Below are positions 25,395 to 37,329 of a stretch of DNA of 44,613 nt, one piece after another. The translations under genes were made by a program, and so were the position numbers. The notes beneath the pieces are model-generated. The model was not told where the DNA came from. It ran no database searches and was given only the letters and a program-made list of their open reading frames with translations. Position 1 is the first letter of the stretch. Each line of letters starts with the position of its first letter. The stretch lies in IMG/VR virus record IMGVR_UViG_3300045988_087627, positions 1 through 44,613 of that record. One strand, given 5' to 3'. The stretch is from a virus.

Positions 25395-25598
25395 ATGAAC
25401 CTAAAAAAAGATTTGACAAAGGCGGAGTGCGTTAAACTCCGCGAGGAATGCAATTTTACAGACGAGGAACGCGCCGTATTCGATCTACGAGTTACGGCGC
25501 GTTCTGTTATTCAGATTGCAGACACGCTGCATATGAGTGAGGCAACGGTTTACCGGCGGCTGCGGAACATCAAACGGAAAATACTGAAAGTTTTGTGA
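25395..25598 (+). CDS. small sigma-70 region-4-like HTH regulator
   Basis: FTDEERAVFDLRVTARSVIQIADTLHMSEATVYRRLRNIKRKI. Confidence 0.7.
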   Translation: MNLKKDLTKAECVKLREECNFTDEERAVFDLRVTARSVIQIADTLHMSEATVYRRLRNIKRKILKVL

Positions 25599-25654
25599 CA
25601 GGTTTTCGCACTTCCGATGCGCTATAATAGACGCATAGAGAGGGGCGATAAAGC

Positions 25655-36700: not shown

Positions 36701-37329
36701 CGGCAAGTGGCGTTACCTACGAGAAGGGCAAAAAGAACGCGAAGATTGCGGCGGTCGGCGCAGCAGTCAGCCAGAACACGGCAAGTTACGAGCAGTACGC
36801 GGCAGTCATGCACGCGCTCGGCTACAAGAAGATTGACGGCTATTACACGAGCGGCGGCAAGCTGCCGGAGGACAAGAAGGGCGATACCGGCATTTCCGTC
36901 AACCGCGCAACTGGTTTCAGCAACCCGACGAAGGTTTCCGACGCGGTTATCACGAGCGGCTACGGCAGCAGAAGTGCACCTACGACGAACAAGGGCAAGG
37001 GAAGCAAACAGCACGACGGTATCGACATCGGCGGCAGTGTGAACGGACAGGCGGCGGACAGTATCGGCGGCGGCAAGGTCACTGAGGTTGGCTACGATGA
37101 GAACGGCTACGGCAACTATGTTGTAGTAGATCACGGTGGCGGCTACACCTCGCTGTACGGTCACTTGCAGAAGGCTACGGTTAAGCAGGGCGACACGGTA
37201 AGCGCCGGTCAGCAGGTCGGCGTGATCGGCTCGACAGGCAAAAGCTCTGGCCCGCATCTGCATTTGAGAGTGCATAAAAACGGACAGAGTATTGACCCGA
37301 GAACGGTTATTCCGGGGTTCGGCGGATAA
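30772..37329 (+). CDS. 2185-aa polyvalent/ejection-type protein with C-terminal M23 peptidase
   Basis: RBS ggaggcgcaat. The C-terminus HDGIDIGG...GYGNYVVVDHGGGYTSLYGHL...GSTGKSSGPHLHLRVHKNG is the M23 (LytM) signature. The N-terminal part carries one copy of the WH..KTG module (~31290-31440). Confidence 0.85.
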   Translation: MASKDKKYQLSEGRKKQLEQARRNAKNASKQSKPASNYLGGSTKKTTTTKKTSGTQNRNNTVSRSTGGKSTVTNRNVKQADKVNSARPYRQSVRSLGDTVGITREGRQQRQDTRRQNNAKKVLETAKANGTFKASGTISAPKQNTLPRASGGFRSSGTGKTWNEKEERQKAIDTLNANSIMWHNTTDEAERNRLHEANNQIRKSFGMTYRDKTGATYLPKAGGTTNVSTPVVKIARGAALNRAATSQAQRQQRVDELNSEIERMQKQYPYLINMDVQGRNTADKAAAIAHLATHPKLAIAGINGSAQYDRMSADEKKQAQAIYQLYKRLNDESNALSKMSAAKSWGSGAANTLLNATGAVENAGRYVSGTANKAAGDFLDFIGKDKAGQFLKGTAQKTLEGSLSDKALQAVNEWAQPVGMAKKGQEFAGSAARMAPGIAANMALPGASLAMIYGDSAKSGVNEAQREGATLDQAMLYGTGAGLTELGTEKMFSGIPGMGEGVIKTGNGILGRAADILGEGAEEAASTFINPYLKRATYNPNAQNATAKELLDSAKGGIAMSALMQGASGAANRLADYRYGTDTNTVYTSPEEANRDMVDPVYALPNGQRLALPEGNTRTANTLYANENGSVANNLRAFNDVQTPDVLYGNMRGDFTASQNSGNVLYAGPNGQVAQSLPTGYLPEGRSTKTRIAARGETRTIPLMDEFETNGGLYRGEMEWAKLLIDNSNETGVPIKTYIEALVDPAEKKMGAVLDAAEQYVKNYKKQGVSIIQNGDGTGYRASNNEDWYSQFYRKYGRAPRKSDAADIAREFIQHDLRAGGGNWVSPELARDWSEAQQIQAAYDAIGDDAVSAEITPEGLKVMNGTRARTEDIRETNAGRNAIVSPAEINNTAQPLDLNAAQGVQQGAVQSNPTLRDIRPKLRTAAQAAQESAQNAPAEITQPMQGNAQGAALGAQQTAQANDINPTLKKAWVNAESSVGAAEGGFDPYSRMVNDYGAIPEGENPARVVDVPQSTNGEDRVRRGARTFMESGITTDEMIPSFEQEVANGTFSYNVKTDKSALNNAVRTINKKGWQGAMEQWEDVTDGRRTASKDDIVLAETMYSAAVKSGDTQTAMRLAAEIAAEGTRAGQEVQAIKLLKKTTPEGQLYYLQKAVEKIQQEYQARFDKLDRKAEKKAAKNGVPGAEVAEQHGITLNEDLVQEFLNAPDEDARKQVVDKIYDDIASQIPATAGDRLNAWRYFAMLGNPRTHIRNIMGNVASAAALDTSHKVSAVGQKFLPQEKRTRALHTSKAAKQFAKADYANVEAELSGNAYKTEMSEIKQRQKLFPKPLQKVMDANTWALDAEDQVFKKKSYIDSMGNFLTARGWDVNNLTEAQLNEARQHAIQDAKIATFQDASKLADTLSQLEKKNKATEVIIGSLVPFKRTPINVAKRSFELSPVGLLKAITYDAVQVKKGNMDATKMIDHIGQGLTGSSVAALGAFLAAQGIFSAGSSDDDKEANLDAGMGQQEYAINLFGKSYTIDWASPAVVPLAMGGELYEALHQKYDDDETAFNQAMATVSRMFDPMLNMTMLSGIGSTVTSAAYNKSNPLFGIASNVATNFGGQFVPTLFGQVARTVDNTRRTTYADKNSPVPSSVQKFLQRQANKIPGLSQNQPAYTDVWGREQKNGPDNVFARAAYNFLSPGYLADAKSTQTEKALKELYQATGDNSVLPSKPQKYYKTEDGTKKFLTAQEYSALTSEGGKIALDALGKLTKSEAYKGMTNDEKIEAVSDVYKYAKAVAANKTYGKELEGTIQTVKDSGIEPGLYYAYKEMEDSYNDSMESWEARDQTFNSIKSDKSLSEQEKNSLYHTLLIKGTSDSQWEKYQEISGKVTAEEFVDAMIQKQAITKEGENIDKGRAAAEATEFSYYLDAKGYTGAKREALENTFKFYSMVKADPANYTFDMIRENGGTKEKAAIGEVESAGISAPQYAKIKTAASGVTYEKGKKNAKIAAVGAAVSQNTASYEQYAAVMHALGYKKIDGYYTSGGKLPEDKKGDTGISVNRATGFSNPTKVSDAVITSGYGSRSAPTTNKGKGSKQHDGIDIGGSVNGQAADSIGGGKVTEVGYDENGYGNYVVVDHGGGYTSLYGHLQKATVKQGDTVSAGQQVGVIGSTGKSSGPHLHLRVHKNGQSIDPRTVIPGFGG

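Follow-up and report, generated by a model that had tools for sequence, protein, structure and literature searches.

The phage genome in IMG/VR record IMGVR_UViG_3300045988_087627 (44,613 nucleotides; we refer to this whole stretch as the window) carries a block of late-type genes behind its lysis genes, at 25395-37329. The last gene of the block encodes a giant protein of 2185 amino acids (aa). We found that the block consists of two separable modules: module A (25395-29121), with the genes for reg67, p51, p113, p73, p251, p128, and p217, and module B (29182-37329), with the genes for p512 and the giant protein. We think it probable that module B encodes a set of proteins that is packaged in the capsid and ejected into the host, with a hydrolase for the host's wall as part of the giant protein. 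We base this proposal on which genes are present, on their synteny, modularity, and domain homologies, and on where they lie in the genome; from these we infer the location in the virion, the ejection, and the order of events.

The initial annotation of this block, which was made from the sequence alone, observed it correctly, and its interpretation was half right. It had suggested that the 217-, 512-, and 2185-aa proteins could form an ejectosome. Judging from homologies, predicted folds, and analogy to other phages, the giant protein is very probably internal to the virion and ejected with a wall hydrolase, so this part is supported. The three-protein set is not.

Composition and modularity of the block

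The block has nine co-directional genes on the + strand and one inserted gene, for an HNH endonuclease, on the minus strand. The initial annotation had recognized the HNH insertion and had counted ten + strand genes. All of the genes that it listed are where it placed them, and one of the nine, p51, was not on its list. The features of the block are:

25395-25598 (+), reg67, a 67-aa stand-alone helix-turn-helix (HTH) regulator of the GerE/LuxR type (sigma region 4-like), first gene of module A
25593-25630 (+), promoter-like element downstream of reg67 and ahead of p51: TTGTGACAGGTT and TATAAT/TTATACT, ~18 nt apart
25655-25810 (+), p51, a conserved 51-aa protein with tblastn matches in most relatives (46-100% identity)
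25810-26151 (+), p113, with a Y/P/Q-rich N-terminus (phrog_21718, E = 8e-7)
26148-26369 (+), p73, Q/M-rich, 73 aa, start ATG at 26148
26370-27134 (-), free-standing HNH homing endonuclease (phrog_3377, E = 1e-59)
27273-28028 (+), p251, a membrane protein (phrog_16490, E = 5e-35)
28085-28471 (+), p128, beta-rich, with 7 Cys
28468-29121 (+), p217, with an R/Y/E-rich N-terminal half and DUF7841, last gene of module A
29133-29160 (+), stem-loop and T-run between modules A and B
29182-30720 (+), p512, 512 aa, partner of the giant protein
30772-37329 (+), giant protein, 2185 aa, 236 kDa, no Cys
37332-37360 (+), strong intrinsic terminator that closes the operon (GAAGGGAGGGCGCGAAGCCCTCCCTTTTT, 2 nt past the stop of the giant gene)

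A comparison of synteny, which the initial annotation had proposed, showed that this gene series (without the HNH gene) is kept in 21 related IMG/VR loci and in one metagenome-assembled genome (MAG) of Candidatus Butyricicoccus avicola. Because of the synteny in the 21 relatives, and because the giant protein has over 400 close homologs, these genes are not chance open reading frames (ORFs). The GC content at third codon positions (GC3) and the codon composition of both modules are those of the structural genes. These results speak for a late block that is conserved and native in composition, and against a recent cargo island. We also considered a defence island and rejected it. None of the block's proteins matched a defence-system family in PADLOC. 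More generally, NCBIfam and PADLOC gave nothing informative for the uncharacterized proteins of the block.

The two modules are found without each other. In the related locus L022 (7646-19162), the endolysin gene is followed by a p512 homolog, a gene for a giant protein of 2584 aa (about 400 aa longer than in the window), and an integrase gene; all seven module A genes are absent from this position. Conversely, in L102 and L103, the lysis genes are followed by a small HTH regulator, a p51-like protein, p113, p73, p251, p128, and p217, without p512 or the giant gene. The same cassette lies behind a 922-aa tape-measure-sized ORF and an M23 lysin in L112, again with no p512 or giant gene. Pieces of the cassette are also present in Clostridium perfringens phages, Dulem virus 36, and bajarodcaudo virus 2, all of which have tape-measure-type tails. 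Because module B occurs without A (L022) and A without B (L102, L103, and L112), the modules are separable.

This modularity changes two earlier claims. First, p217 does not belong with p512 and the giant protein: it travels with the upstream cassette, being present in L102, L103, and L112 and absent from L022. Second, the small regulator had been proposed to control the block as a separate unit. Since module A, headed by reg67, is also found in a siphovirus without the giant gene (L112), reg67 is not dedicated to that gene.

The core of the giant protein is shared with polyvalent proteins

The giant protein can be divided as follows:

aa 1-260, basic, disordered N-terminus (isoelectric point 11)
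aa 169-218 (nt 31276-31425), WH motif
aa 261-974, variable region; conservation is poor up to ~870 and extends from ~870 to the C-terminus
aa 975-1785 (nt 33694-36126), conserved helical core
aa 1786-2079, family-specific helical region
aa 2080-2176 (nt 37009-37299), M23 peptidase

To define the core, we used phmmer with residues 880-2070 as the query, which leaves out the M23 domain. We found 7164 clusters at E <= 1e-3, including 3447 at E <= 1e-30, and the best 150 had E values below 1e-150. The part that the 7164 clusters have in common corresponds to residues ~975-1785. The core is usually C-terminal in its homologs, which have 850-4300 aa. The long homologs also carry MuF_C, LPD3, ddrB-ParB, ART-PolyVal, PBECR3/5, LPD1, LPD23, phosphoribosyltransferase, SNF2 plus Eco57I methylase, or M23 domains. 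No model from Pfam, NCBIfam, or PADLOC matches the core, and PHROGs match from residue 1758 onwards only, centered on M23.

As judged by these similarities, the core is homologous to the C-terminal part of established polyvalent proteins. The initial annotation had likened the giant protein to this class, and the core that it has in common with MuF_C, LPD, and ART-PolyVal proteins bears this out. The core homologs are clearly multi-activity proteins; the giant protein itself has one recognizable domain (M23) beside the core and low-complexity sequence. Because the same core carries ART, nuclease, ParB-like, and SNF2/methylase payloads in thousands of relatives, it seems to serve phage polyvalent proteins as a delivery chassis, and a wall hydrolase is the sole payload that can be recognized in the giant protein.

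A tblastn search of plasmids with the core gave a single match, L028 (NZ_CP132331.1). This 39-kb "plasmid pA" of Bordetella bronchiseptica is filed as a non-mobilizable plasmid and is in fact the genome of a BPP-1-like podophage; it encodes a terminase, a portal, the Bbp16 cement protein, lysis proteins, and an integrase. Its core homolog (hidden Markov model [HMM] E = 3.7e-25) lies within the structural module, between tail genes, and is apparently split into two coding sequences (16231-18069 and 18060-19208).

We modeled the core with AlphaFold from 24 diverse homologs. The model is all-helical, with many short packed helices (predicted local distance difference test score [pLDDT] 73, predicted template modeling score [pTM] 0.58). 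Among the predicted viral structures in BFVD, it matched polyvalent proteins of uncultured phages (E = 1e-53 to 1e-31) and "internal virion proteins" of T7-like marine podophages: the Pelagibacter phage Eyrgjafa (2.8e-11), S-RIP1 (8.5e-11), S-CBP2 (3.3e-10), and S-CBP3 (9.4e-10). Comparing a model of the core by Foldseek, as had been suggested, thus gave matches to internal virion proteins in BFVD and no meaningful match in the PDB.

The M23 domain and the partner protein

The C-terminus of the giant protein had been identified as an M23 peptidase, and we agree. Peptidase_M23 (PF01551; residues 2080-2176) is its sole Pfam match (93.2 bits against a cut-off of 28.7, E = 1.2e-26). The zinc-binding and catalytic motifs HxxxD (HDGID, at 2081) and HxH (HLH, at 2162) are intact, unlike in the degenerate activators EnvC and NlpD. 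From these motifs, we predict that the domain is enzymatically active. PDB sequence searches with the giant protein matched M23 enzymes only (to E = 3e-14), and tblastn against GenBank phages also gave M23 matches only. The giant protein has no signal peptide.

An M23 domain could also act from the outside of the virion. Phage phi29 is a Gram-positive podophage that uses an M23 (LytM-type) endopeptidase for entry, and its gp13 is a small two-domain tail-tip protein. The main rival to ejection is that the giant protein likewise sits on the outside of the tail, for instance as a tail-tip lysin or needle, and digests the wall without being ejected; we consider this unlikely. M23 domains are indeed known on tail or tape-measure proteins of Gram-positive phages (Gp16 of a Brochothrix siphophage, 9m7n; our tblastn matches to tape-measure proteins; and phrog_23188). 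However, M23 makes up just the last 5% of a 236-kDa protein here, and a mostly helical protein of this size, with a basic disordered N-terminus of 260 residues, is unlike known tail spikes or knobs. Also, core homologs are fused to ART, nuclease, and SNF2/methylase enzymes. Because these enzymes act in the cytoplasm, such core homologs must enter the cell.

The gene before the giant gene encodes p512, which has a Ser-rich N-terminus, two "WH motif" domains of ~48 aa (aa 51-100 and 126-175; motif HMM E = 1e-29 and 7e-30), and then long helices, with an invariant block at aa 302-372 within the helical part. We found 135 homologs, including one in the genome of Agathobaculum massiliense. The WH motif is present in both p512 and the giant protein, and this is kept across the family, out to relatives whose core is ~45-59% identical. 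In the AlphaFold model of p512, the motif domains form small helix-helix-hairpin folds (pLDDT 83-89). A PDB sequence search with p512 gave no informative match. A gene for a protein of 500-700 aa lies directly before the giant gene in L113, L114, L022, and the window.

Many related contigs (L036, L040, L049, L054, L056, L059, L061, L064, L067, L070, L073-L076, and L078) end 1.2-2.2 kb past p251. These ends fall in or near the 5' part of the p512 gene, which is Ser-rich and of low complexity; this suggests an assembly break due to hypervariability or repeats.

The phage has a Pagevirus-like structural module

The initial annotation had noted the lack of a tail tube, sheath, or tape measure and had predicted a podovirus-like virion. 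We found no match to tail tube, sheath, or tape-measure families among the window's proteins, and a check for a tube or tape-measure module that might have been overlooked found none. Genes for tail chaperone, terminator, Dit, and Tal are also absent from the window. The 628-aa nozzle-like protein (19594) aligns over its full length with a "virion structural protein" of the phages Page, Pony, Pookie, and Pascal (~31% identity, tblastn E ~1e-55 to 1e-56). These are isolated podophages of Bacillus megaterium, in the genus Pagevirus. By blastp, the nozzle-like protein matches Page_15 with E = 4.6e-66; the adaptor matches Page_12 (E = 8e-8), and the scaffold matches Page_5 (E = 1e-7). PDB sequence searches with the nozzle-like protein, adaptor, and portal gave nothing informative. 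These homologs in an isolated podophage confirm, as far as morphology can be read from genes alone, that the phage is short-tailed with a Pagevirus-like structural module.

These results bear on whether the giant protein could be the tape measure of a long-tailed phage whose tube genes were missed. Several siphovirus tape measures are large helical proteins with a C-terminal M23 domain, as here. But there are no tube, chaperone, terminator, Dit, or Tal genes in the window, and the adaptor, nozzle, and scaffold have homologs in isolated podophages. The giant gene is the last late gene, with the terminator and attP next and no baseplate genes downstream. The model of the core has many short packed helices, not a single long coiled coil, and at ~0.15 nm per residue, we estimate that 2185 aa would imply a tail of ~330 nm. 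We consider a tape measure extremely improbable and exclude it for practical purposes.

The host family is probably Butyricicoccaceae (Agathobaculum/Butyricicoccus), given the p512 homolog in the A. massiliense genome; one MAG of Candidatus Butyricicoccus avicola is among the syntenic loci.

The giant gene is the last late gene

The placement of these genes after the lysis cassette had seemed unusual. We examined gene order around core-bearing genes in other loci:

L113: holin, NlpC/P60 lysin, 561-aa protein, 3992-aa giant protein, serine recombinase
L114: holin, amidase, 107-aa protein, glucosaminidase+NlpC/P60 protein, 674-aa protein, 4308-aa giant protein, recombinase
L115: 1130-aa core-only protein, then integrase and immunity genes
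L027: lysin, module A-like series, 2473-aa giant protein with M23, then early genes
L118: giant gene, then prophage end

In every informative context (the window, L113, L114, L115, and L118), the core-bearing gene is the last late gene, so placement after the lysis genes is normal for this lineage. In L114, a separate glucosaminidase+NlpC/P60 protein is encoded upstream, where the phage in the window has a fused M23 domain. In a relative that is integrated in its host, the giant gene is directly followed by bacterial genes, for CbiK, a sigma factor, and AddAB.

The space between lysis genes and attP is also the classic position for morons. The whole region could be a moron or cargo island that is expressed from the prophage for the benefit of the lysogen, for instance for superinfection exclusion or as a lysostaphin-like bacteriocin. 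The region does have its own small regulator, a conserved promoter-like element, and a membrane protein (p251). On the other hand, the position of module B is kept in relatives down to 34-40% identity, along with podophage-type late genes, and its codon composition is that of structural genes. The giant protein lacks a signal peptide or transmembrane helix, no defence or toxin family is matched, and its homologs carry MuF_C and other head-associated polyvalent domains. Also, the giant gene takes up ~15% of the genome and is kept in all 21 of the relatives that we examined, which is hard to square with an accessory role. We judge a moron island to be quite unlikely for the region as a whole, and lysogen-expressed cargo is unlikely for module B. 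For module A alone, the moron explanation stays open, because this cassette moves between unrelated phages.

Comparison with known systems

Iyer et al. (2017; PMC5512222) argued that polyvalent proteins are packaged and injected, and noted that the phage versions adjoin late virion genes. The domains that we found on the long core homologs are the ones by which that paper defines this class. The giant protein is similar to these in its core, in its very large size, and in having its gene beside late genes (after capsid, tail, and lysis). It differs in having M23 only, without a MuF domain or zincin peptidase; M23 is not mentioned in that paper.

A similar layout is seen in phi24B, a 933W-like Shiga toxin (Stx) podophage, which is also temperate and provides the one precedent for packaging and injection. 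Its giant polyvalent ORF is the last late gene, by attP and int, and follows a few mid-sized genes. Mass spectrometry found this protein (gp47, 2811 aa) in virions, and it was proposed to be a packaged ejection protein (bioRxiv 10.64898/2026.04.10.717836). This comparable protein is abundant in virions yet invisible outside (same preprint), which also argues against an external tail position for the giant protein. There are differences: phi24B infects a Gram-negative host, its giant protein has LPD5, LPD1, LPD38, and MuF-C in place of M23, and it has no detectable homology to the core or p512.

The similarity to gp14-gp15-gp16 of T7, which the initial annotation had pointed out, is functional. 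Both phages have a short tail, the largest internal protein of T7 carries a peptidoglycan hydrolase, and the total mass of the presumed internal proteins is, by our estimate, of similar order. At the level of predicted models, the fold of the core also has some likeness to proteins annotated as internal virion proteins in T7-like cyanophages and pelagiphages. The analogy does not extend to sequence homology or to solved T7 structures, which gave no match. The hydrolase of T7 gp16 is a lytic transglycosylase at the N-terminus, whereas the window's phage has a C-terminal M23 endopeptidase. Furthermore, the T7 genes lie between the tail tube and fiber genes, not after holin and endolysin, and the conserved unit here is two proteins instead of three.

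Besides its homologous nozzle-like protein, adaptor, and scaffold, Page has a hydrolase (Page_19, "lytic tail fiber protein") followed by a 1679-aa protein with a basic N-terminus (Page_20) at the end of the structural genes. The annotation of the hydrolase beside this large ORF would favor an external tail component. Yet a hydrolase and a large ORF that share a structural operon are also a precedent for the proposed ejection set. In Page, these two genes come before holin and endolysin, and the hydrolase is a separate protein.

Finally, prophages phi1 and phi4 of Clostridium clostridioforme LM41 look like further examples, as far as we can liken them by description. They come from gut Clostridia, are ~41 kb, and were predicted to be podoviruses; the "8 kb ORF at their 3' ends" takes up ~20% of the genome and has limited similarity to LPD3 (PMC11318856). 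Podovirus-like particles were seen by transmission electron microscopy, and the 8-kb ORF was listed as an accessory gene (PMC11318856).

A model for delivery through the wall

We propose that the phage would make both module B proteins late in infection and pack them into its head, where the shared helix-hairpin motif of ~48 aa may serve as a common packing or docking tag. At infection, both proteins would exit through the short tail. The C-terminal M23 metallopeptidase would then cut the peptide cross-links of the thick Gram-positive wall, and the helical core of ~800 residues, together with p512, may build a conduit from the short tail to the membrane that bridges the wall. The very basic N-terminal 260 residues might bind or accompany the DNA.

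Several results weigh against this model. A tblastn search of the 50,697 GenBank phage records did not find the core, so its function has no anchor in a cultured relative. Its similarity to the models of internal virion proteins is low (TM-scores of 0.25-0.46 and 12-14% identity). The best Foldseek hit in the PDB had E = 0.04, TM-scores were below 0.12, and neither gp15 nor gp16 of T7 was among the hits; because there is no match to solved structures, the likeness to internal virion proteins is one between predicted models. The HMM of the core gave bit scores under 5 against gp13-16 of T7 and gp15/16 of P-SSP7, with no gp15 or gp16 match at E < 0.1. HMMs of the core, p512, and the motif found nothing among gp43-48 of phi24B or the Page proteins. 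In particular, the core does not match Page_20 by HMM or by hhalign; blastp gave just a 71-residue patch (E = 1.5e-4). Neither the giant protein nor p512 has a canonical transmembrane helix, and Pfam shows no MuF or other known head-targeting domain in the giant protein. As for p512, its model is poor overall (pLDDT 58), with low-confidence long helices outside the motif domains, and has no significant fold match in BFVD. For the proteins encoded before the giant gene in L113 and L114, we detected no homology to p512.

Module A is a mobile cassette

Judging from the genomes described above, module A is an independent mobile post-lysis cassette of siphophages and podophages, with its own putative GerE-like regulator. 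We infer its role less directly. Our best guess is that module A is directed at the envelope, for example in exclusion or as an accessory to lysis or entry, since one of its proteins, p251, combines a membrane helix with a large Cys-rich domain.

The first gene had been described as a sigma-region-4-like HTH, and the profile matches agree: residues 21-63 of reg67 score above the gathering cut-off for GerE (PF00196; 26.2 bits against 23.5), with E = 1e-4 for Sigma70_r4_2 and E = 9e-6 for the NCBIfam model of the sigma70-ECF C-terminus. So, reg67 is a GerE/LuxR-type HTH regulator and a predicted DNA binder. Its position is kept in relatives, and in L102, L112, and L027, the cassette likewise starts with a small HTH gene of this kind. 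The promoter-like element downstream of reg67 is conserved across 11 aligned loci, with non-canonical spacing. We found it by its conservation across loci and not by a generic scan for promoters and terminators, which gave counts no higher than in shuffled sequence. Two relatives, L001 (6313-6606) and L015 (~5095-5390), have an extra gene for a membrane protein of ~97 aa between endolysin and reg67, which the window does not have.

Among the other proteins, p51, p113, and p73 are small and of low complexity, and neither p51 nor p73 matches any family. p73 is always encoded directly after p113, both in relatives and in unrelated phages: homologs of p113 adjoin a p73 homolog in Clostridium perfringens phages and Dulem virus 36, which have tape-measure-type tails. 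The Gly/Asn-rich transmembrane protein of the initial annotation is p251. It has one transmembrane helix (residues ~33-51, hydropathy 1.79), a Gly/Asn-rich region, 11 Cys, and the C-terminus CGCNACGC; its likeliest start is the ATG at 27273, behind a good ribosome-binding site, which gives 251 aa rather than 261. Homologs of p251 occur in siphoviruses and in phages without the giant gene.

No other protein of the block is nearly as constrained as p128. It is 93-99% identical in L002-L021, whose giant proteins are 64-98% identical and whose p512 goes down to 56%. It has no family or PDB match. In p217, DUF7841 (PF25223) covers residues 105-212 (nt 28780-29103; 116 bits against a cut-off of 25.2, E = 1.4e-33). 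This domain also adjoins the lysis genes of crAss-like phages, and we found no mention of it in the literature. PDB sequence searches with p217, p251, p128, and p113 gave no informative match. We also considered that these might be spore-coat-like Cys-rich proteins under a GerE-like regulator. No family match stands behind this idea, and we dropped it.

A homing endonuclease is inserted into module A

The HNH gene is a homing endonuclease gene that is inserted into module A. It is missing from 21 of 21 relatives. Homology to L016 and L012 stops at the stop codon of p73 and restarts ~17 nt before the start of p251, so the insertion or replacement spans 26373-27255, in place of ~120 bp of intergenic DNA in the p73-p251 spacer. 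With a GC3 of 0.41, as compared to 0.64-0.76 in neighboring genes, its composition is foreign.

The rest of the phage genome

The 44.6-kb window is a complete temperate phage genome, with nearly all genes on the + strand, and no near-identical DNA was found among GenBank phages. Its main features are:

1-10 kb, replication and recombination genes
12.4-18.9 kb, terS, terL, portal, scaffold, and HK97-type capsid protein
18973-23994, five tail genes
24039-25339, Phage_holin_4_1 holin and Amidase_2 endolysin
25395-37329, the block studied here, ending with the gene for the 2185-aa protein
37530-37563 (-), tRNA 3'-end fragment that marks the attP core and lies past the operon, ahead of the integrase gene; reverse complement of the T-arm and acceptor end of a tRNA
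37671-38882 (-), tyrosine integrase gene

No whole tRNA was found in the window. Upstream of the packaging genes, 9502-10011 encodes a second sigma region 4-like protein of 169 aa (Sigma70_r4_2 E = 2e-3), so the phage has two regulators of this type; the 169-aa protein is a candidate late activator. Between this gene and terS, 10186-12603 has negative AT skew and plausible ORFs on the minus strand. It appears to be a small counter-oriented island ahead of the packaging genes, and one of its ORFs has a weak match to a DnaJ domain (E = 7e-6, below the cut-off).

The portal (14375-16315) has an insertion at residues ~236-291 with the pattern Cys-x2-Cys ... Cys-x2-Cys (CSKCGADMQGDICPYCGS), which weakly matches the zinc ribbons DUF6980 (Pfam) and Nop10 (PDB). 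The tail fiber (21485-23380) has collagen-like Gly-X-Y repeats (Pfam Collagen, E = 1e-17), and its C-terminal part varies greatly between relatives, which would be expected of a receptor-binding protein.

The motif GGTGACAC (GTGACA-type) occurs at 23384, 25367, 37371, 37383, and 37635. This is five times versus 1.3 expected, and 0 of 100 shuffles reached five. The three copies on either side of attP and the integrase gene may be arm sites for the integrase. Another copy is inside a conserved element upstream of reg67 (GATATGCGGTGACAC..ACAAGGGG in relatives). We also considered GTGACA-type motifs as sites for the regulator. A looser pattern was marginally enriched (10 versus 4.6 expected), and we built nothing on it.

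Implications

A broader possibility, which we offer tentatively and hold to be doubtful, is that the core is a universal head-to-cell chassis in a large and almost wholly uncultured group of temperate podophages of gut Firmicutes, so that any payload fused to it would be delivered with the DNA. The ~48-aa motif would then be a head-loading tag, and module A would be a second mobile, self-regulated cassette with a new envelope-directed function.

It is poorly understood how the DNA of short-tailed phages passes through thick Gram-positive walls, outside of phi29, and likewise how polyvalent effector proteins enter virions and are then delivered. This locus is a minimal version, with one partner protein, one core, and one wall hydrolase. 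The phage family is abundant in gut metagenomes and has lysogens in the cultivable genera Agathobaculum and Butyricicoccus. The lasting value of the locus lies in a widespread, unnamed core domain and in a separate mobile post-lysis cassette. Defining the core domain would improve the annotation of gut prophages and mark those giant ORFs that are virion cargo.

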